Origin: a virus
Taxonomy: Duplodnaviria > Heunggongvirae > Uroviricota > Caudoviricetes
Virus record (IMG/VR): IMGVR_UViG_3300045988_141797
Reading direction: 5' to 3' (one strand)
Length of the DNA: 64,000 nucleotides
The notes beneath the pieces are model-generated. The model was not told the DNA's origin. It saw only the letters and a list, made by a program, of their open reading frames with translations, and ran no database searches. The first letter of the stretch is position 1. Each line of letters begins with the position of its first letter. A program made the position numbers and the translations under genes. This document shows, piece by piece, positions 19,450 through 63,412 of this stretch.

Positions 19450-19530
19450 GGTTAAACCCTAAATTCGGGCGCGGCGTGAAGATTCTTTTGACGAGGTGAC
19501 AATACTCACTTTGTTATTTAGTCAATAGCA

Positions 19531-19605
19531 TTAGAAAAATAATTTTCGTTAACAATCTTGTGTTAGTATGGTTTAATCTTAATTTTCTAACATAAAACAT
19601 TAGAA
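19531..19605. promoter_or_regulatory. operator cluster (TTAGAAAA / TTTTCTAACA half-sites)
   Basis: several copies of the window-wide operator half-site directly upstream of the 19609 ORF. Confidence 0.5.
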
Positions 19606-27646: not shown

Positions 27647-27690
27647 AAAACTGTGTTAGAAAATAAAACTCAATTATCTAACACAGTTTT
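27647..27690. promoter_or_regulatory. palindromic operator upstream of rdgC operon
   Basis: AAAACTGTGTTAGA ... TCTAACACAGTTTT 14-bp inverted arms. Confidence 0.6.
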
Positions 27691-36459: not shown

Positions 36460-36497
36460 TTAGTAGTTAAAGCCCCGGCATGACCGGGGCAAATCTA

Positions 36498-37439
36498 TTA
36501 ACTAACAATCCAGTCGGTCGCTGCTACATCTTCTGGCTGTAAATCAATCGCACAGATCTTGCCGTCGCGAATGGTGCGCCAGTTTTTCCGTGAGCCTCTT
36601 TCGGGCCATACCCAGACACTTTCAGGCCAGGATGCTCGACGGCATACGGTTGCATACCCTGTTTTAATCTTCTCTCTGGCGGTATGCAACGACAGGTTTG
36701 CCTTTGGACTTTCAGGCACAGGATGGTGAATGGCCTGAAATAGCCCCATCCTGGGATGATACCAGCGTTTGTTACGTGGTTCTGCCTCCGACATAACCTG
36801 CTTAAAGGCTTTCCGGAAGGGGGCCAGGGCCACAATGGAGCGTCGCGCAAGCAAACCGTCGGGAGTTAAAAACTCATGCGTATCAGTGGGTATCCGGTAA
36901 GCGTTGACCAGGTTGCGGCATTTGGCTTCAGTCAGGCCGCATTTTGCCGCCAACTGGCGATAGCCAATGTAGCCTTCTGGAATATTGCCTTTCTTGATCT
37001 GCTCAAGTGTTTCGGTGACCCTGGACACTTGTGCCGATACCTCGGCTACCTGGGCATTTACGGCGTTGATCCTGCGTTCATGCTCAAGATGCATTTGCGC
37101 CATTTCAGCCAGGATTTCGGCTTTTGATTTTAACGGTCCCCTGACATTCTCCAGTTCGCGCCAGCGGTCCACCAGCCGGGCGGTGAATTCCGGAGAGAGC
37201 TGCGCGACGACGATAATACTATCGCGCTTGCCTTGTTCGCCTTCGAAGAAATAGGCTTTTGTGTATTTATTAGGGCTAAGTGATTGATTATTCTCAACTG
37301 TAGCCAATGGCGTATGTTGGATAACTCCTTTAGCAACAAGTCTTTCGATGCTGCGTTTAACATCAGAGTGACGACTTCCCACCAGTTCCGCGATCTCAAT
37401 GCTGGTCATTGTCGCTTTTTGAGAGATGGACAGATTCAT
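36498..37439 (-). CDS. Rha-family phage regulatory protein (antirepressor-like)
   Basis: N-terminus MTSIEIAELVGSRHSDVKRSIERL typical of the Rha family; start overlaps stop of the upstream small ORF (TGATG). Confidence 0.55.
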   Translation of the reverse strand: MNLSISQKATMTSIEIAELVGSRHSDVKRSIERLVAKGVIQHTPLATVENNQSLSPNKYTKAYFFEGEQGKRDSIIVVAQLSPEFTARLVDRWRELENVRGPLKSKAEILAEMAQMHLEHERRINAVNAQVAEVSAQVSRVTETLEQIKKGNIPEGYIGYRQLAAKCGLTEAKCRNLVNAYRIPTDTHEFLTPDGLLARRSIVALAPFRKAFKQVMSEAEPRNKRWYHPRMGLFQAIHHPVPESPKANLSLHTAREKIKTGYATVCRRASWPESVWVWPERGSRKNWRTIRDGKICAIDLQPEDVAATDWIVS

Positions 37440-37654
37440 CAGTGCACCTCCACGCAGTTCATCGGCAGATTCCAGTAATTGAGGATCTCCATCGCATCAA
37501 GAGTGAAGCGAGCAGCAAAAATACAGGGTTCTTCGGGAAGGTATGAGCGCGCCTCTGCTTCGGTAGCAGCCATTACGCAGATATAGAGGTGTTTTTGGCA
37601 GGAATAGAAACGCCAGATAAATTCAGAATGAGTTGGGGTAGGGATAGTAGCCAT
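37439..37654 (-). CDS. small leader ORF translationally coupled to antirepressor (icd-like position)
   Basis: 71 aa, strong RBS AAGGAGG, stop overlaps antirepressor start. Confidence 0.4.
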   Translation of the reverse strand: MATIPTPTHSEFIWRFYSCQKHLYICVMAATEAEARSYLPEEPCIFAARFTLDAMEILNYWNLPMNCVEVH

Positions 37655-37699
37655 ATTGGCAGCCTCCTTTTGCTAATTTAAGGAGCTACCGCGTGAGGT

Positions 37700-37800
37700 T
37701 CCAATCTCAATGGCGGTAGCACTGACTGGGTTGGAACTACCGGCGCAAAAGGGAACCGGCCTGCCTTTCGGCAGCCCAGCCAGCACTACCATTGATCTCT
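37700..37800 (-). ncRNA. candidate structured regulatory RNA / leader
   Basis: minus-strand 16-bp helix between 37775-37790 and 37715-37730 with three G-U wobbles (would be C-A mismatches on the plus strand), extended by CAATGG/CCATTG, enclosing hairpin CTGCC-GAAA-GGCAG. Confidence 0.4.
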
Positions 37801-37837
37801 GAGCTAAACGCTACGCATGGCTGTGCGATGGCATGAC

Positions 37838-37862
37838 ACAAAAAAAGACGCTTTCGGCGTCT
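37838..37862 (-). terminator. intrinsic terminator (minus strand)
   Basis: hairpin GACGC-CGAAA-GCGTC followed by T7 run on the minus strand. Confidence 0.55.
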
Positions 37863-37957
37863 GTGTCGCCTTTTGCATTATCCGGGGTTCCAATCCCGGC
37901 ACCCGTTTTTCTAAGGTGCCGTAGAAATATACCCCACGATAATGCCAGGGCGCAACT

Positions 37958-38125
37958 GTGTGTTTTCTTATGCTTTTCTTTTCTTCTTTTGGGCTTGCTT
38001 GCAGGCGTAGGCCATTGCTTTAGCTTTCACTTCATCCAGCTTCCCGGTGATCACTTCTTTTCCGAGAGTGACAAACCAGTCATAGCAACCGCCAGTGATG
38101 TTCTGGATTTGAAAGTTGAGGTAGC
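37958..38125 (-). CDS. candidate small basic protein (55 aa)
   Basis: manual translation MTVRYLNFQIQNITGGCYDWFVTLGKEVITGKLDEVKAKAMAYACKQAQKKKRKA; below ORF-track cutoff. Confidence 0.3.
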
Positions 38126-38452
38126 GAACGGTCATTTTGACACCCCCAGCGCGAGTAAAGAATGCAGATTATCGCGTGAGTGGCGGACAACGAGTGATGG
38201 GAAAAGACAGTAGCTGTTCATAGTGTAGTGACTCCTTGCTTTCGGAGCCGCCATCGACTGTTCCACGGTCTGGTGGCGGCGCAATAAAGGCTGGAACACC
38301 GTGAGTCAACGGGGGCTTTTCAGCCACCTATATTGCACCGCCATTGGTATGGCGGCGGCAATCATACGAAAAACCAAACGGTTTGTCTCAAAAAGTTGAC
38401 CGGTGTACCAATCGGTTGTGAATGTACAACGGTGGATCTCACAATTCAACTT

Positions 38453-38481
38453 AAAATGTTAGAAAATTAATTTATTAATTC
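38453..38481. promoter_or_regulatory. operator site at head of the immunity-I-like operon
   Basis: AAAATGTTAGAAAATTAATTTATTAATTC. Confidence 0.5.
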
Positions 38482-39084
38482 AGTCACCATCTGATACAAC
38501 GTCATTTCATCAGCATTGTGCCGCCTGAAATCTGCTTTGCCGCCTATTTTTCCATCAGCATGAACAGGAACCAACCAGGGGTATTGCTCGCGGATCTCTG
38601 CTGGCGCTGCGTGTTGATGGTGCCATTTACACAAAGGGAGGACGTATTTATGCGCGTTCTCTGCTGTTCTCCCGAAGATGTGGTGCAGGGATACCACAGG
38701 GCTATGCTGTCCGTGCATATGGCAGGCAATGCAGGGGAGAGCACCGATGGCAGTTTGTATCCGGCGCTCATCTGCTGTGAGTGTTCTGCCTTTCAGGCCG
38801 CGTGACGCGCGAGTTTTTTTGACAGGAGCAGAAGCGGCCTTCTCTTTTCTTCGCTGTTCATATTGCTTCGCTTTTTCAATTTTCTTTTGCCGATATTCAG
38901 GCGATGCGGCTTTTTCTCGCGCACGCTGCTGCTGGCGTTGAGCTTGCTGAAGACGCTTTGCCCTTTGTTCCTCCCGCCATTTCGGATCAGCCAGTTTTTG
39001 CAGGGCTTTTTGTGTCTGTTTCTCCCAATAGCTTTGCTTCATAGAAATACCCGGTTTGTCTACATCGCCGCTATGGTTGATCAA
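38467..39084 (-). CDS. Ref-like HNH endonuclease with basic disordered N-terminus
   Basis: N-terminal 85 aa K/R/Q/E-rich; C-terminal Cys/His cluster LPCIACHMHGQH...LHHIFGR...LPLCKWHHQH; true start may be internal. Confidence 0.45.
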   Translation of the reverse strand: MINHSGDVDKPGISMKQSYWEKQTQKALQKLADPKWREEQRAKRLQQAQRQQQRAREKAASPEYRQKKIEKAKQYEQRRKEKAASAPVKKTRASRGLKGRTLTADERRIQTAIGALPCIACHMHGQHSPVVSLHHIFGRTAENAHKYVLPLCKWHHQHAAPAEIREQYPWLVPVHADGKIGGKADFRRHNADEMTLYQMVTELIN

Positions 39085-39086
39085 AT

Positions 39087-39120
39087 GTGTTAGAAAATCA
39101 AAATTGATTTTCTAACACAA
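39087..39120. promoter_or_regulatory. perfect palindromic operator between divergent operons
   Basis: TGTGTTAGAAAATCAAAATTGATTTTCTAACACA. Confidence 0.65.
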
Positions 39121-44197: not shown

Positions 44198-44235
44198 CCG
44201 TGTTAGAATATTGATTTTAATTTTCTAACATATTA
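44198..44235. promoter_or_regulatory. operator site
   Basis: GTGTTAGAATATTGATTTTAATTTTCTAACAT upstream of the 44273 ORF. Confidence 0.55.
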
Positions 44236-55105: not shown

Positions 55106-55130
55106 GATTGTTAGAAAATTAATTTATGAA
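55106..55130. promoter_or_regulatory. operator site
   Basis: GATTGTTAGAAAATTAATTTATGAA upstream of the 55051 operon, overlapping the Cre-like gene 3' end. Confidence 0.5.
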
Positions 55131-56152
55131 TCCATCAGGCGACTATTTGCACCAACGGATGCCCCGCTACGGCGCAAATATCGCATAAGTGTTTCGGGCT
55201 TTTTCCATGTGCCTTCCTGCATGATCTCGACCATTGACACCTGTTTCTCAGCCATATCAATTGCCGCACCAACACGCGCACTATGGCCTGTCCACGTCCG
55301 GTATCTTCCCTTGTTCGGCGTGGCATCTCGTTTGTTCAGCAACCCCCAGGCATCGCTGAATATTTTCTCCATTGCAGGTGCAGTAAGGGGCGTTGTCGTG
55401 ATTCTGGCCTTATTACTGCGGTGTATTGGCGGGAATAGCACCGCGTCCGGATGTTCTCGAAGTCCGGACACCTCCAGCCAGTCGTTCAGTACGGCGGTAG
55501 TGTAACGAGAAAGCACCTTATCAAGTCCGGCGGCGGTCGTGATGGTCTTCGTGTGTGAAATATGCAGCGTTACAGTGTCACCTGTTTGGTCCAGATCTCC
55601 GACGCGGATGCGCGAGATTTCTGACATACGCATCAGGGTATTGTATGCCACGAAGAGAAACGCCCGATTGCGCAGGTCCACCAGCCGCTCGGAACGGGAC
55701 AGCAACACGTCGAGCAATTTCAGATCATCCCACCGCAACGGTATAGCCTGGCCTGTTCGCTCGCCTTTTTCCGTTGCCGCTTCGCGCCGGATGCGCCGCA
55801 TGGCCAGAGACACACTTTTATCGTCCGACAGCGGCGGGAGGCCACATTGCGAAAGCAGCATGTTAAGCATGGCATAGTGCTTATCAATGGTGGTCGAAGC
55901 CAGATCGGCCTCATGCAACTGGAGAAGATACTCGCGGGCCATTTCCGGCGTAATCGGGAACCAGGGGCGCTGGCGCGAGTTACACCACCGCGCCCAGGAA
56001 TGAAACACCAGACGGAGATCACGAAGTGTATTTGGGGCATAAGCTCCCTGGTCGTTCATGAACTGCATAAAGTTTTTTGCAGCTTCCTGGTATTCGGTGC
56101 CAATATCGCGCAGAAAACCACCAGAACCGCCGGAGATAACTAGTTCACCCAT
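55124..56152 (-). CDS. Cre-like tyrosine site-specific recombinase
   Basis: colinear with P1 Cre from memory (WTGHSARVGAA, RIRVGDL, MRRIRRE, conserved C-terminal Tyr) but clearly diverged. Confidence 0.8.
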   Translation of the reverse strand: MGELVISGGSGGFLRDIGTEYQEAAKNFMQFMNDQGAYAPNTLRDLRLVFHSWARWCNSRQRPWFPITPEMAREYLLQLHEADLASTTIDKHYAMLNMLLSQCGLPPLSDDKSVSLAMRRIRREAATEKGERTGQAIPLRWDDLKLLDVLLSRSERLVDLRNRAFLFVAYNTLMRMSEISRIRVGDLDQTGDTVTLHISHTKTITTAAGLDKVLSRYTTAVLNDWLEVSGLREHPDAVLFPPIHRSNKARITTTPLTAPAMEKIFSDAWGLLNKRDATPNKGRYRTWTGHSARVGAAIDMAEKQVSMVEIMQEGTWKKPETLMRYLRRSGASVGANSRLMDS

Positions 56153-56416: not shown

Positions 56417-56521
56417 ACATTTTCTAATAGGAACAATCAAAAAAAAGCGGTTTTATCCTTTACTCACCTTGTTATTCGGCATAAATTTGTCACAGGACTT
56501 TTATGTTAGAAAACTAAATCG
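56417..56521. promoter_or_regulatory. pair of inverted operator half-sites upstream of the 56532 ORF
   Basis: ACATTTTCTAATAG at 56417-56430 and TGTTAGAAAACT at about 56505-56516. Confidence 0.45.
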
Positions 56522-56531
56522 AGTAGGAATA

Positions 56532-57569
56532 ATGAGTAAGAAGTCGATCGAGAATGAGTACAAACGGTTCCTGCAAACCGCTGAACGGTGGAAAGAGCTG
56601 GTGGTCGCAAACTCTGTTTTCCATGATACCAGTTATGTTGGCGAGGAATTTCGCCATGTTGCATTAACACATGATCCGGCTGTATTAGAAGAAGCTGAAA
56701 AATGCATAGCCGAATGGAAAGCCTTTGTTGATCTGTGTCGCAAGGATGATGACAAAGCCTCAAACATTGTTGAGTCGGTTTATTTACCGATCCCATTCAT
56801 TGTTGAGGATACTAATCAGAGTACGCATATCGTTATGCAAAGCGCAACCACAACGAGAACATTTACGCGCGAAGACCTGTTGAAAAAATACGATAAAACT
56901 ATAAAGAAAAGCATGAAAAACAGGATATTTTCACAGGTTGTCGGTGCGCTTGAAGAAGAACGCAGATTCTTCGCCGCTGAACGTGAGGGCGAGGTATACC
57001 GCGCAAGAAAAGAAGGTTATACCGATGTGGTGATTACCACCAATATTGAGGGCAACAATGGACTTTCACGCTTCAGAGTGGGTACGCACGGTGCGCTGAT
57101 CTTTGCAAAAAAAGCAAACACAGAGATTCCCGTTGTTAACAACGTTGGTGAGCGCCGCACCCTTACCATTTACACTGGCATTAAACCGCTTCCGTGCGGA
57201 CTTCTCGGCGAATTTGACCTTTATCGGGTTCGTGATCTGGAAAAGCAGCAGCCAAGCTACGTCGTGAAGTCATATATCCTGAGAAACATTGATATCCGCA
57301 ATCAGAGTTTAAAAAACAAATCAGATAAAATGCTGGCCGAAGCCGATCCAGCCATACACCAGATCGTTAGCCGGAAAATTCAAGAGGCTAAAGATGCAAT
57401 GGCAAGGCTGGATAAAATGGACCTGGAACTACTGGAAGTTATGATTGCCTCCGGCGATGACCTGACAGGCATCCGCCTTACTGAAGCCAGGAAAAAATAC
57501 GGTAAAAGCGTTGAAGAACGCTATGGGTACACATTCACACAAACGATGTACGCGGCAAAACTCTGGTAA
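56532..57569 (+). CDS. hypothetical protein, candidate master repressor by position
   Basis: 345 aa from ATG 56532; sits between lox/cre and terminase genes and is preceded by operator half-sites; ORF-track start 56244 rejected. Confidence 0.3.
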   Translation: MSKKSIENEYKRFLQTAERWKELVVANSVFHDTSYVGEEFRHVALTHDPAVLEEAEKCIAEWKAFVDLCRKDDDKASNIVESVYLPIPFIVEDTNQSTHIVMQSATTTRTFTREDLLKKYDKTIKKSMKNRIFSQVVGALEEERRFFAAEREGEVYRARKEGYTDVVITTNIEGNNGLSRFRVGTHGALIFAKKANTEIPVVNNVGERRTLTIYTGIKPLPCGLLGEFDLYRVRDLEKQQPSYVVKSYILRNIDIRNQSLKNKSDKMLAEADPAIHQIVSRKIQEAKDAMARLDKMDLELLEVMIASGDDLTGIRLTEARKKYGKSVEERYGYTFTQTMYAAKLW

Positions 57570-60479: not shown

Positions 60480-60868
60480 AGGGAAGCCTCACGTTTTTTC
60501 ACAGCGGCGTTCCATAGCTGGTTAGTCATCGCCACCAACTGACGCTGCTCCTTTCGTAATTGAGCTTCTATCTTTCGGTTGGTGTTTTTCACCAACAGCC
60601 GACCGAATTCAGGAGTGCGCCCGCGCACCTTGAACTGGTATCCATTCAGGCCATGTAACCAATATTTCCGGGGGTATACGCGGTCGTCTATTTCGCAAAT
60701 GGCACGACTGGAACGAACAAAAAAACGTATGATGTTATTTACGTTTACGCGCGACACATGAAGGTGAGGATATTGTGCTTTTGCACGGCTGGTGATTTCG
60801 GTGACCGTCAGATAGCAGTTAGCCCTGATCATGATATCCGCTATTTCGGCGCTACTGATTTGCTCCAT
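60476..60868 (-). CDS. hypothetical protein, candidate late activator by position
   Basis: 130 aa, first gene of the operator-controlled terminase operon. Confidence 0.3.
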   Translation of the reverse strand: MEQISSAEIADIMIRANCYLTVTEITSRAKAQYPHLHVSRVNVNNIIRFFVRSSRAICEIDDRVYPRKYWLHGLNGYQFKVRGRTPEFGRLLVKNTNRKIEAQLRKEQRQLVAMTNQLWNAAVKKREASL

Positions 60869-60944: not shown

Positions 60945-60976
60945 CTATTAGAAAATTAATATCAATTTGCTAACAC
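60945..60976. promoter_or_regulatory. operator site
   Basis: CTATTAGAAAATTAATATCAATTTGCTAACAC. Confidence 0.5.
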
Positions 60977-62383: not shown

Positions 62384-62459
62384 TGGTGGCCCCTACCGGA
62401 CTTGAACCGGTGACCGTGCGATTATGAGTCGCCCGCTCTAACCACTGAGCTAAAGGGCC
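62384..62459 (-). tRNA. tRNA-Ile2-like (anticodon CAU)
   Basis: cloverleaf with CCA encoded; anticodon arm GGCGA-CTCATAA-TCGCA; close to E. coli ileX from memory; could formally be elongator Met. Confidence 0.8.
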
Positions 62460-62469
62460 AGATTACTGT

Positions 62470-62598
62470 TAATTACGCTTACGCTTTTTGCCAGAACCGC
62501 GTAAGGCTTTTGCCGCTTGCTCTACCCCGTATGCAACCACCAGCAGAAACAATAATGTCCACTCCGGGTTTTTATCGGCAAACGCCCAAAAATCCATC
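62470..62598 (-). CDS. candidate 42-aa membrane peptide
   Basis: manual translation MDFWAFADKNPEWTLLFLLVVAYGVEQAAKALRGSGKKRKRN with AAGGTGG RBS; below ORF-track cutoff. Confidence 0.25.
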
Positions 62599-62888
62599 AC
62601 TTGCAGCCACCTTTTAAGACAAAACGCCATTGCTGTTAGGTTGCGGTGCCGGGTGCCTCCCGGTGACGTTAACCAGTTAACAATTAACGCCGGATCACTT
62701 ATGGATTCTCGTTACGCCAGTAAAAAGACCACCTTTACTGTTTTAACTGTTCCGCGTGCGCTTAGCCGCATTCACCGCAATGGTAAGAGCATTTGGCTGA
62801 CTGGGCGGCGATGACGCCTGTACGCATTTGGTGATCCGGTTCTGCTTCCGGCATTCGCTTAATTAGCCAAATACTCTTAACGTTGCGC

Positions 62889-62975
62889 TGGCGGAGAGTA
62901 ATGGAATCGAACCATCATCGCTTGCGCAATGGGACGGTTTTCAAGACCGCTTGAGCACCATGCTCCCTACTCTCC
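62889..62975 (-). tRNA. tRNA-Ser (anticodon UGA), type II
   Basis: anticodon arm GCGGT-CTTGAAA-ACCGT, long variable arm, T-loop TTCGATT, discriminator G, CCA encoded; short D-loop. Confidence 0.65.
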
Positions 62976-63081
62976 AGTGATTGTGATGGTCGGTGCTGAA
63001 CTCCGACACAGGGTTGTAGCAAGCCCCGCAAAGCGCGCACTACTGTAGTTGCGGCACATCAGCCTGTGCATTCATCACAAC

Positions 63082-63155
63082 GGTAAGGGTACTTCGTAGG
63101 GATTCGAACCCTCTGCCAAGCTCGGCGATCTCCGACGTCGCAAAATACCCTTACC
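63082..63155 (-). ncRNA. non-canonical tRNA-like element
   Basis: perfect 10-bp terminal helix GGTAAGGGTA/TACCCTTACC extendable to about 15 bp, canonical T-arm AGGG-TTCGAAT-CCCT, no standard D or anticodon arm, no encoded CCA. Confidence 0.35.
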
Positions 63156-63163
63156 TGTTGTGT

Positions 63164-63239
63164 TGGTGCCGGTTAACGGACTCGAACCGCTGACATCCTG
63201 CTTACAAGGCAGGCGCTCTACCAACTGAGCTAAACCGGC
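63164..63239 (-). tRNA. tRNA-Thr (anticodon UGU)
   Basis: GCCGGTT acceptor, anticodon arm CCTGC-CTTGTAA-GCAGG, T-loop TTCGAGT, CCA encoded. Confidence 0.85.
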
Positions 63240-63243
63240 AATT

Positions 63244-63330
63244 TGGTGGGGAGTGATGGAGTCGAACCATCCGAGTCGCAATGACAGTAGATTTACAGTC
63301 TACCCCGCTACCCCTACGGACTAACTCCCC
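63244..63330 (-). tRNA. tRNA-Tyr (anticodon GUA), type II
   Basis: anticodon arm GTAGA-CTGTAAA-TCTAC, long variable arm, T-loop TTCGACT, CCA encoded. Confidence 0.75.
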
Positions 63331-63335
63331 TAAAT

Positions 63336-63412
63336 TGGCGATGGTGGGTGGATTCGAACCACCGACCGACAGCTTAGAAGGCTGCTGCTCTATCCTACTG
63401 AGCTACACCATC
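63336..63412 (-). tRNA. tRNA-Arg (anticodon UCU)
   Basis: GATGGTG acceptor, anticodon arm GCAGC-CTTCTAA-GCTGT, T-loop TTCGAAT, CCA encoded. Confidence 0.8.

Follow-up and report, generated by a model that had tools for sequence, protein, structure and literature searches.

The region at 36498-38481 of the viral DNA analysed here (the window, a stretch of 64,000 nucleotides) is very probably the immI (immunity I) control region of a D6-like plasmid prophage, judging by its family matches and layout, and it follows the logic of both the P1/P7 immI operon and Gifsy-1 isrK. The window as a whole is a D6-like plasmid prophage, with 89.8% identity to phage D6 and 98.4% identity to an E. coli plasmid. 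In P1-like plasmid prophages, which frequently act as carriers of resistance genes among Enterobacteriaceae, superinfection immunity and induction are determined by C4/Icd/Ant regions. The antisense-RNA switch of these prophages is already known and the locus is an ordinary example of it in a relative of D6, a textbook system for which a reading of the raw sequence could be confirmed. Its scientific value is modest, and the testable lead that it offers is a second, tandem C4-like RNA (c4#2) together with the ORFan orf55. The features of the region are collected in Table 1.

Table 1. Features in and around the immI-like region, in coordinates of the window.
Feature	Position	Strand	Basis
D6-type C1 operator (monovalent), candidate, AAATTAATTTTCTAACA	38457..38473	-	repeated motif
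Promoter-like TTGAAT-17-TACATT	38421..38449	-	read from sequence; 7 nt downstream of operator
Promoter-like GAGACA-17-TATGAT	38361..38389	-	consensus scan; ends ~13 nt before c4#2
Divergent C4-like RNA c4#2	38269..38348	-	Rfam C4, sub-threshold
Candidate c4#2 targets a2/b2	38229..38265	-	complementarity and register
29-aa leader ORF	38132..38221	-	alignment to 61-aa Icd-like gene
orf55, 55 aa, conserved	37968..38135	-	phrog_7786
Promoter-like TTGCGC-18-TATATT, predicted cassette promoter	37926..37955	-	alignment with P1c4 (P51b)
IsrK-family leader RNA (a1, b1, intrinsic terminator)	37839..37920	-	Rfam isrK RF01394
C4 antisense RNA (c4#1)	37709..37796	-	Rfam C4 RF01695
C4 target sites a2/b2	37666..37704	-	pattern search
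icd homologue, 71 aa	37439..37654	-	NF033153, P1/D6 Icd identity
Rha-type Ant-like protein, 313 aa	36498..37439	-	Pfam Phage_pRha, phrog_63
GC-rich hairpin GCCCCGG/CCGGGGC + TTT, distal cassette end, after ant	36469..36490	-	read from sequence

At the centre of the cassette is an element that can be identified, from its family match, covariation and pairing partners, as a bona fide C4 antisense RNA (c4#1). It scores 76.7 bits (E 3.3e-14) on Rfam C4 (RF01695, gathering score 45 bits) in a full-length match to model positions 1-87, and the mature RNA is predicted at 37712-37790 (79 nt), its ends being placed by alignment to the annotated c4 of P1. The original prediction had described a 16-bp helix with three G-U pairs that works only as minus-strand RNA, and both points were borne out. 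Manual pairing of the arms joins 37775-37790 to 37715-37730 over 16 bp, including the three G-U pairs, and the minimum free energy (MFE) structure consists of a long closing helix around two hairpins. The stability is strand-specific: the folding energy is -46.4 kcal/mol (z -5.46) for the minus-strand RNA versus -32.0 (z -1.38) for the plus strand, where internal loops break the helix. Comparison across homologues, proposed along with folding as a check, gave a consistent answer, with compensatory changes at 14 of 25 pairs among 10 homologues; helix covariation is thus established at the level of sequence. A conserved AUGG at the C4 5' junction and CC-R-CC after the helix are found in all homologues.

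The same stretch can also be read as protein-coding, with 37676-37792 specifying a 39-aa 'Ash family' protein in place of an RNA gene. When translation is started at the conserved AUGG, the product matches Pfam Phage_ASH at 33 bits (cut-off 26), the label 'ash family protein' was given by PGAP in the 98.4% identical plasmid, and orf45 of Gifsy-1, which lies downstream of isrK and is probably the same ORF, has been reported to be translated (PMC4825925). However, the length of the ORF from the AUGG ranges from 14 aa in P1 through 28 in Kp020009 and 31 in P7 to 39-60 elsewhere, the substitutions in the RNA helix are compensatory, the AUG has no upstream Shine-Dalgarno (SD) sequence, and the ORF has its stop ahead of icd and no coupling partner in this locus. 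We consider a protein gene in place of the RNA hardly credible; the public annotation of the C4 gene as 'ash family protein' hides the RNA.

The assignment as C4 is reinforced by what its unpaired segments can pair with. The a' segment (GTTCCAA, 37731-37737) and the b' segment (CCTTTTGC, 37745-37752) have exact complements of 7 nt and 8 nt, respectively, at two places, upstream at a1/b1 and downstream at a2/b2. The sequence TTGGAAC occurs at a1 (37887-37893, inside a hairpin loop of the IsrK-like leader) and a2 (37698-37704), and GCAAAAGG at b1 (37869-37876, in the same leader) and b2 (37666-37673), as found by pattern search. In the 64 kb of the window, the combination TTGGAAC..GCAAAAGG is found only as a1/b1, as a2/b2 and as the complement within C4, against a chance expectation of 0.00. 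The b2 site overlaps the icd SD (AAGGAGG, 37663-37669), so that the complementarity search suggested for this ribosome-binding site returned exact a2/b2 matches. Co-variation was assessed in 14 modules plus the metagenomic contig L050, which was read directly from sequence: complementarity is perfect at all four sites in 9 modules and at three sites in 2 more, with the positions fixed. At least seven specificities can be distinguished (among the window, D6, RCS47, P1, P7, Stx2, L016/L029, phiP27, Kp020009 and L050). Between the window (TTGGAAC) and D6 (TTGAGAC), for instance, a1, a' and a2 have all switched together, and the recognition code of the window is also present in several metagenomic contigs. 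The unpaired segments of C4 conserve complementarity to a1/b1 and a2/b2 and not a sequence as such, and this exact, position-specific complementarity, co-varying in homologues, can be regarded as established from the alignments. Because the a/b code is readable from sequence alone, it could be used to predict which D6-like and P1-like elements are heteroimmune.

These findings also bear on whether the structured element might instead be a cis-acting transcription attenuator or leader, as the original prediction had left open beside a c4-like antisense RNA. The element lies in the leader, with a terminator before it and the first ORF after it, a position that would suit an attenuator, and the CI RNA of the related P4 system works on transcription termination (PMC4825925). 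Against this, the 16-bp helix of c4#1 is followed by no U-tract, the pattern of conservation in its unpaired segments is that of complements to the target sites and not that of a terminator/antiterminator pair, and the founding members of the Rfam C4 family act in trans (PMC12197685). An attenuator is very unlikely, and of the two readings offered it is the antisense one that is supported.

Upstream of C4 lies a leader that is placed in the IsrK family by a score of 62.5 bits on Rfam isrK (RF01394, gathering score 50 bits). Its 3' end contains an intrinsic terminator, recovered by consensus scan as a stem at 37846-37862 followed by TTTTTT(G). A terminator had been proposed at 37838-37862 and is indeed present, but it is not a free-standing element, being the 3' end of the leader. 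Just before the leader, the hexamers of the predicted cassette promoter fall, in the alignment with P1, in exactly the columns of the annotated -35 and -10 of P1c4 (P51b), and the site may serve as the cassette's own promoter, the positional homologue of P1c4 (P51b). Homology to the P1-like phages RCS47 and JL22 begins exactly at this site.

Downstream of C4, the 71-aa ORF matches NF033153 (phage_ICD_like) at 49.4 bits (cut-off 25) and has 62.7% identity with P1 Icd and 97.2% with D6 Icd, which establishes it as a member of the Icd family by sequence comparison. As anticipated, it has a strong ribosome-binding site and a stop codon that overlaps the next start: the TGA of icd (37439-37441) and the ATG of ant have one base in common (TGATG). 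This overlap suggests that translation of ant is coupled to that of icd. The expectation of a Rha-family antirepressor-like gene was likewise met with a match to Pfam Phage_pRha (PF09669; 33.6 bits versus a gathering score of 29.9) over N-terminal residues 11-98, a winged-helix Rha domain. The protein also falls in phrog_63, 'anti-repressor Ant' (E 1.1e-57), and is 85% identical to D6 Ant. No ANT domain was detected in it, and BLASTP against P1 Ant1 gave no significant similarity (E 0.039 over 67 residues only).

The operator had been placed at 38453-38481, and the repeated core AAATTAATTTTCTAACA does lie inside that interval, where it directly follows the stop codon of ref. It is found at 13 sites in the window at up to 3 mismatches, compared with 0.20 expected, several of them as inverted pairs, so that the repeated motif is itself an established feature. 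The core is similar to the P1 operator consensus (P1 Oc4) read as its reverse complement; the P1 consensus in its own form, ATTGCTCTAATAAATTT, has 0 matches in the window at up to 3 mismatches. A 17-mer shifted to 38466-38482, also considered as the operator, had only 2 matches, and a k-mer scan put the repeated core 9 nt further on. A C1 homologue, 80% identical to D6 C1, is encoded at 56532-57569 with the operator motif just upstream. The original prediction had put the whole cassette under this master-repressor operator. The motif is real, but it stands 500 nt upstream of the cassette, with c4#2, the leader ORF and the 55-aa ORF in between, and the cassette has its own predicted promoter; in the P1-like phage RCS47, a P1-type operator is found ~45 nt upstream of the same cassette. 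The gap from the operator to the nearest -35 is 7 nt and there is no overlap with the -35 of any predicted promoter. The promoter-like sequence beyond this gap is a candidate for control by C1, and in homologues from E. fergusonii, S. dysenteriae, L016 and L050 its hexamers are in place while the spacer has diverged. The promoter-like sequence before c4#2, which may also function as a promoter, similarly has hexamers that are kept and a variable spacer in homologues.

The cassette is found well beyond the window. The tandem of isrK (a1/b1) and C4 upstream of icd and an ant-type gene is also present in P1, P7, RCS47, 673R5 and D6, and the RNA tandem occurs as well in phiP27, Stx2 phages, Klebsiella phage 020009 and L050. 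Since the isrK-c4 segment is found at 70-92% identity in both lambdoid phages (phiP27, Stx2) and P1-like phages, it is mobile between unrelated phages. Besides the lack of similarity between Ant and P1 Ant1/2, the operator 500 nt away and the strong terminator before C4, two further observations count against the immI reading. The cassette is absent from some D6-like relatives, and is therefore dispensable for maintenance of the plasmid prophage; in these elements homology to the window picks up again at 36477. Near this point lies the GC-rich hairpin after ant, for which the terminator scan made no call, its U-run being short. In addition, D6 has a further c4-icd-ant module adjoining repL, outside the window, and immunity may be governed by either module or by neither. 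No second icd copy was found in the 64-kb window, and a weak tblastn match at 60521-60574, tried as one, falls in an lpa-like ORF just upstream of pacA.

With these facts in hand, one can ask whether the module, while genuinely controlled by C4, determines immunity at all. Ant may not act on its own C1; it could be a trans-acting antirepressor or regulator directed against the repressors of other prophages, or a DNA-binding regulator. Such a role would fit its lack of similarity to P1 Ant1, its N-terminal winged-helix domain, the mobility of the isrK-c4 segment and the D6-like elements that do without the cassette, and it has a precedent in AnrP of Gifsy-1 (PMC4825925) and in trans-acting antirepressors (PMC3121763). 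On the other hand, an Ant of 85% identity sits in the same place in D6, its PHROG family is named 'anti-repressor Ant', and a predicted operator-controlled promoter lies upstream in the same orientation. We judge a role other than against its own C1 to be rather unlikely, and continue with the immI reading, in which Ant would antagonize the C1 of the same prophage and C1 would control the upstream promoter.

In the proposed mechanism, the cassette-internal promoter would produce the IsrK-like leader with its decoy a1/b1, ending at the intrinsic terminator, and read-through transcripts would extend into C4, icd and ant. Because a strong terminator stands between the cassette promoter and C4, synthesis of C4 would depend on read-through. 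C4 would then be cut out of the read-through transcript. In P1, RNase P carries out this excision. A long closing helix with G-CCA after it is similar to the acceptor end of a tRNA, which would fit RNase P, and we infer by analogy, with the conserved AUGG and CC-R-CC as indirect evidence, that c4#1 is likewise excised by RNase P from a longer transcript and acts in trans. The b' segment in its hairpin loop and the a' segment in the linker would pair with b2 and a2 of the mRNA, and, with b2 lying over the icd SD, pairing with C4 would stop translation of icd. As ant starts at the icd stop codon, ant would also remain untranslated, and c4 is described as blocking ant mRNA at its ribosome-binding site (PMC12197685). 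Derepression could occur if transcription outruns C4, or if the short IsrK-like RNA titrates C4 through a1/b1. In Salmonella, IsrK is a read-through leader that activates the coupled antirepressor, with the processed RNA STnc1160 downstream (PMC4825925).

The closest well-described relative of the arrangement is the P1/P7 immI operon (Oc4/Op51, P51a/P51b, a1-b1, c4, a2-b2, icd, ant1/2), which has the same order of parts; the annotated Oc4, a1, b1, c4, a2, b2, icd and ant of P1 follow one another as in the window. The original prediction had recognized this P1-type logic of an RNA-controlled, coupled antirepressor, and the C4 match, the Icd match and the complementarity uphold it. It had also supposed that the sequences differ, which is true of Ant and the recognition sequences but not of C4 and Icd. 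Both C4 RNAs match RF01695, and the two Icd proteins share 62.7% identity. The promoter can be aligned with P51b, and in both systems b2 covers the icd SD, the start of ant overlaps the stop of icd and the leader has a terminator-like hairpin; by these comparisons the cassette parts are homologous to their P1 counterparts, beyond mere analogy. The recognition sequences of P1, in contrast, are TTGACAG (a) and GTTAGTG (b), whereas those of the window are TTGGAAC and GCAAAAGG; the Rha-type Ant of the window is not homologous to Ant1/2; and the operator, which is of the D6 type, points the other way and stands 500 nt upstream, beyond another RNA module. In D6 the gene content and order are unchanged (ref, two small ORFs, icd, ant), with 89.8% nucleotide identity over the whole region, but the a-specificity is TTGAGAC at a1, a' and a2, and Ant and C1 are 85% and 80% identical to those of the window. 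In P22 sar/ant, a small RNA also blocks translation of antirepressor mRNA, but sar is a true cis-antisense RNA from the opposite strand, without the C4-type fold, processing or a/b site pairs. An ImmI-related region with c4, icd and an antirepressor has been described in pYU39_89, a D6-like plasmid 99% identical to D6 (PMC6799933). In the Gifsy-1 isrK-STnc1160/orf45-anrP locus of Salmonella, the IsrK-family leader has a promoter and a terminator of its own, read-through leads into a downstream RNA that is processed (the C4-like one by position), leader and downstream RNA are complementary to each other, and the antirepressor is translationally coupled; unlike there, the coupled upstream ORF in the window is a separate icd. 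In Gifsy-1, the only case for which this is known, IsrK has two isoforms, a short sRNA and a read-through mRNA, of which the short form trans-activates the antirepressor, and it binds Hfq (PMC4825925). The CI RNA of satellite phage P4 is also a processed small RNA between upstream and downstream complementary sites (seqA/seqB/seqC), and seqA has been called a structural homologue of IsrK (PMC4825925); it differs in acting by transcription termination on replication genes and in having no icd/ant payload.

Between the operator and the cassette lies the less familiar part of the region. The architecture of the unannotated c4#2 is C4-like, with a long closing helix and two short hairpins, and it scores 39.5 bits (E 5.8e-5) on Rfam C4, under the gathering score of 45; similarly sub-threshold matches (36.5-42.3 bits) are found at the equivalent place in D6 and other D6-like loci. 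The copy in E. fergusonii is 92.5% identical, compared with 55% for the flanking leader. The MFE is -36.2 kcal/mol (z -4.4) and the plus strand is equally stable (z about -4.4 to -4.5), so the strand of c4#2 cannot be assigned by folding. In 7 distinct sequences, no pair changed on both sides and 209 of 500 shuffles reached the observed covariation score. A scan of IMG/VR with the 61-aa Icd-like protein gave only one contig, already in the compared set, and the diversity of c4#2 is therefore too low for a covariation test. Species-representative genomes contained no relative of the c4#2 core or of orf55. Seven-nt complements of the unpaired segments lie +4 and +34 nt after the RNA, close to the +5 and +36 of a2 and b2 after the main C4. 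These are TGGAACA (38259-38265) as candidate a2 and GGAGTCA (38229-38235) as candidate b2, the latter overlapping an SD, AAGGAG. The duplex energy is no better than that of shuffled controls (z -0.01), and the sites are plausible but unproven targets.

The 29-aa leader ORF that follows can be aligned to the beginning of a gene for a 61-aa Icd-like protein on plasmids of E. fergusonii and S. dysenteriae, and from this alignment it is what a deletion has left of a second icd-like gene. The ORF ends in a stop codon that overlaps the orf55 ATG (ATGA). The 55-aa ORF had been foreseen at 37958-38125; it exists, with coordinates displaced by 10 nt (37968-38135), the only error among the features foreseen, all of which are present. 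It belongs to phrog_7786 (E 9e-42), and in a large database it is represented by only 16 protein clusters, none of which bears a functional name and nearly all of which come from contigs of tens of kb, most of them 80-94 kb; orf55 is confined to D6-like elements. The most divergent homologues have more synonymous than non-synonymous codon changes (14:3 and 12:6). An AlphaFold model (pLDDT 84) has four strands and one helix. Searches of the PDB gave no sequence match and no fold match (best E 1.7), a domain search gave only a weak match to DUF3319 below the cut-off, and there is no similarity to P1 Coi.

The RNA c4#2, lying before an icd remnant that overlaps orf55, is the one item here that may be undescribed. 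The picture can be extended, tentatively and with some doubt, into a tiered antisense network in D6-like prophages, in which c4#2, with its own specificity, would gate the leader ORF and hence translation of orf55. This tier would lie downstream of the C1 operator and ahead of the mobile cassette of IsrK, C4, icd and ant; the leader ORF would persist solely because its stop overlaps the next start, and the main C4 would have a sponge in the short IsrK-like RNA. If this were true, orf55, a protein with no solved match, found only in D6-like elements and having a confident predicted fold, would be under antisense control. Across homologues, the residues of the leader ORF vary, but the overlap of its stop with the orf55 start persists, also in a 31-aa variant that has indels.

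The control system of this region is already known, since the RNA families score above threshold, the Icd protein is homologous and related elements have been described in the literature on D6-like ImmI regions. The original prediction, a Rha-type antirepressor gene coupled to a small ORF behind a terminator and a structured leader RNA after the logic of P1 c4, icd and ant, was confirmed as an observation, and its interpretation is supported. The structured leader matches the Rfam C4 antisense RNA family (76.7 bits; gathering score 45), and the stretch ending in the terminator, whose stem and U-run are present, matches IsrK (62.5 bits; gathering score 50). The a and b sites lie as in the annotated P1 record, where operator Oc4 is followed by promoters P2c4 and P1c4, then a1, b1, c4, a2, b2, icd and ant. 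P1, P7, RCS47, phiP27, Stx2 phages, a Klebsiella phage, D6 and one metagenomic D6-like contig all have an IsrK-like leader and C4 in this tandem arrangement. Across the 2.4 kb around the cassette, identity is 89.8% over 99% of the length with Escherichia phage D6, a P1-like plasmid prophage, and 98.4% with an E. coli plasmid; 456 PLSDB plasmids carry at least part of this region. The D6 record shows the matching order of ref, three small hypothetical ORFs, an Icd-like protein and 'anti-repressor Ant', and a 2019 paper on pYU39_89, a D6-like plasmid 99% identical to D6, already described its ImmI-related region as comprising c4, icd and an antirepressor (PMC6799933).

The helix of the leader is present as predicted, with its three G-U pairs, and is specific to the minus strand, which folds to -46.4 kcal/mol (z -5.46) versus only -32.0 kcal/mol (z -1.38) for the plus strand. 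Compensatory changes across homologues affect 14 of 25 pairs in the closing helix and first hairpin. A conserved AUGG at the 5' junction and a G-CCA after the helix would be compatible with RNase P processing as known for P1. The TTGGAAC..GCAAAAGG pattern occurs within the 64 kb only at a1/b1, at a2/b2 and, as its complement, inside C4 (chance expectation 0.00). Complementarity of the leader to the ribosome-binding region of the 71-aa ORF proved to be exact, b2 overlapping the icd Shine-Dalgarno sequence. Fourteen homologous modules were compared, together with a D6-like contig (L050) read directly from sequence; perfect complementarity is kept at all four sites in 9 of the 14 and at three sites in 2 more. 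The pairing positions are fixed; the sequences vary from phage to phage, and at least seven specificities result. Between the window and D6, a1, a' and a2 have changed together (GGA versus GAG), a three-way co-variation between close relatives. The specific a/b code of the window recombines site types that are already known, and several IMG/VR contigs share it. An attenuator had been offered as the other reading of the same helix. That reading is not supported: the helix has no U-run after it, and what the loops conserve is their ability to pair with the targets. The element is best taken as a c4-like antisense regulator.

Downstream, the 71-aa protein scores 49.4 bits on NCBIfam phage_ICD_like (cut-off 25) and shares 62.7% identity with P1 Icd; its strong ribosome-binding site and its overlap with the next gene are as predicted. 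The 313-aa protein carries the expected Rha domain at its N-terminus (33.6 bits; cut-off 29.9) and is assigned to PHROG 63, 'anti-repressor Ant' (E 1e-57), with no significant similarity to P1 Ant1. In published systems, c4 acts at the ribosome-binding site, where it prevents translation (PMC12197685). In Gifsy-1, some transcription passes the IsrK terminator, and processing of the longer transcript yields a stable RNA from the part downstream of IsrK; the short form of IsrK turns on the coupled antirepressor in trans, through that complementary region (PMC4825925). Given these mechanisms and the pairing and co-variation seen here, we propose that C4 would repress translation of icd and ant, and that a short IsrK-like RNA may be able to titrate C4.

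The C4 gene can also be read as protein. Translated from the conserved AUGG, it scores 33 bits on Pfam Phage_ASH (cut-off 26), and in the nearest plasmid PGAP labels it 'ash family protein'. Since the frame is not conserved in length (14 to 60 codons in homologues) and substitutions follow the RNA helix, this is probably an artefact, a protein family derived from what is an RNA gene, with the caveat that a probably corresponding ORF of Gifsy-1 has been reported as translated (PMC4825925).

Features of the immunity region and related sites in the window
Feature	Position	Strand	Remarks
Cassette	~36478-37967	minus	IsrK-like leader, C4, icd, ant
Cassette promoter TTGCGC-18-TATATT	37926-37955	minus	predicted; aligns column for column with P1's P1c4/P51b
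a1/b1, TTGGAAC..GCAAAAGG	37869-37893	minus	in IsrK-like leader
Intrinsic terminator	stem 37846-37862, then U-run	minus	end of IsrK-like leader
Main C4	37709-37796	minus	mature RNA 37712-37790, predicted by alignment with annotated P1 c4
C4 closing helix	37775-37790 with 37715-37730	minus	16 bp including three G-U pairs
b', hairpin loop CCTTTTGC; a', linker GTTCCAA	within C4	minus	exact complements of two site pairs
Ash reading frame	37676-37792	minus	from AUGG
a2/b2, TTGGAAC..GCAAAAGG	37666-37704	minus	just after C4
icd (71-aa ORF)		minus	SD AAGGAGG; TGA shares one base with ATG of next gene
orf55	37968-38135	minus	55 aa
icd remnant	38132-38221	minus	29 aa
Second C4-like RNA	38269-38348	minus	sub-threshold
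Operator	38453-38481		core AAATTAATTTTCTAACA, 38457-38473
Ref-like nuclease	38467-39084	minus	directly upstream
Other AAATTAATTTTCTAACA copies	19529-19592, 27654-27683, 39088-39117, 44201-44230, 55109-55125, 56504-56520, 60946-60975		motif matches
Cre-type recombinase-like ORF	55124-56152	minus	candidate
C1 homologue	56532-57569	plus	345 aa; 80% identical to D6 'prophage repressor, similar to P1 C1'
tRNA cluster	62384-63412	minus	Met, Ser, Thr, Tyr, Arg
STnc100-like match	62642-62779	minus	within tRNA cluster

The predicted operator is a real repeated motif. The P1 operator consensus has no matches in the window at up to 3 mismatches; in a k-mer scan at up to 3 mismatches, the motif AAATTAATTTTCTAACA occurs 13 times against 0.20 expected, often as inverted pairs. 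One such pair (39088-39117) lies just upstream of ref, and another site (56504-56520) sits a short way before the C1 homologue, a distant relative of P1 C1 (21% identity, E 1e-7). Several copies are overlapping inverted pairs resembling P1 bivalent operators. The Ref-like RecA-dependent nuclease (Pfam RecA_dep_nuc, E 6e-36) has its stop codon inside the operator. The ORF beside the C1 homologue resembles a Cre-type recombinase by sequence and synteny, in a neighbourhood like that at P1/D6 genome ends.

Placing the cassette under this master-repressor operator is true only indirectly. Homology with the P1-like phages RCS47 and JL22 starts exactly at the cassette's own predicted promoter. RCS47 has a P1-type operator ~45 nt upstream of it, whereas the window has nothing operator-like there and its nearest operator lies 500 nt upstream. 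The cassette is also optional, an insertion/deletion among D6-like elements, some of which lack it cleanly (loci compared: L021, L040, L041, L051). In L021, the direct repeats a1 and a2 recombined with loss of C4, and in L051 and L052 an IS605-type element (TnpB/OrfB and Y1 transposase) directly follows orf55. D6 carries a further a1b1-C4-icd-ant(Roi-like) module adjoining repL (L046 11693-12170; phage D6 20693-21170), in a genome part outside the window, bringing its C4-type RNAs to three.

A modest lead is the second C4-like RNA in tandem, together with orf55. The latter had been placed 10 nt off, the only error among the predicted features. Its protein is under purifying selection and occurs in no more than 16 clusters; almost all of the contigs involved are tens of kilobases long (mostly 80-94 kb). 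The predicted structure is confident (pLDDT 84) and has four strands and one helix; it resembles nothing in the PDB by sequence or fold, and the protein is unrelated to P1 Coi. The second RNA (39.5 bits, E 5.8e-5) recurs at the corresponding position in D6 and in further D6-like loci (36.5-42.3 bits). No other non-coding segment of the region is as well conserved: it shares 92.5% identity with the copy on an E. fergusonii plasmid, where the adjoining leader shares 55%. In E. fergusonii and S. dysenteriae plasmids it is followed by an intact Icd-like gene of 61 aa and then by the 55-aa ORF, ant being absent; in the window and D6 this icd is reduced to 29 aa. The remnant drifts in amino-acid sequence, and its stop/ATG overlap with orf55 is always kept, even in a 31-aa variant with indels. 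Candidate targets (TGGAACA, and GGAGTCA over the SD), which are complementary to the unpaired segments of this RNA, lie in the a2/b2 register of the main C4. Their duplex energies show no advantage over shuffled controls, the covariation test has no pair changed on both sides, and both strands of the element fold equally well. In one D6-like contig that is more distant, the 55-aa ORF comes directly after the operator and promoter, without this RNA. A second C4-type regulator is probable but unproven. Elsewhere in the window, an STnc100-like sub-threshold match (40.8 bits against 47) falls among five clustered tRNA genes.
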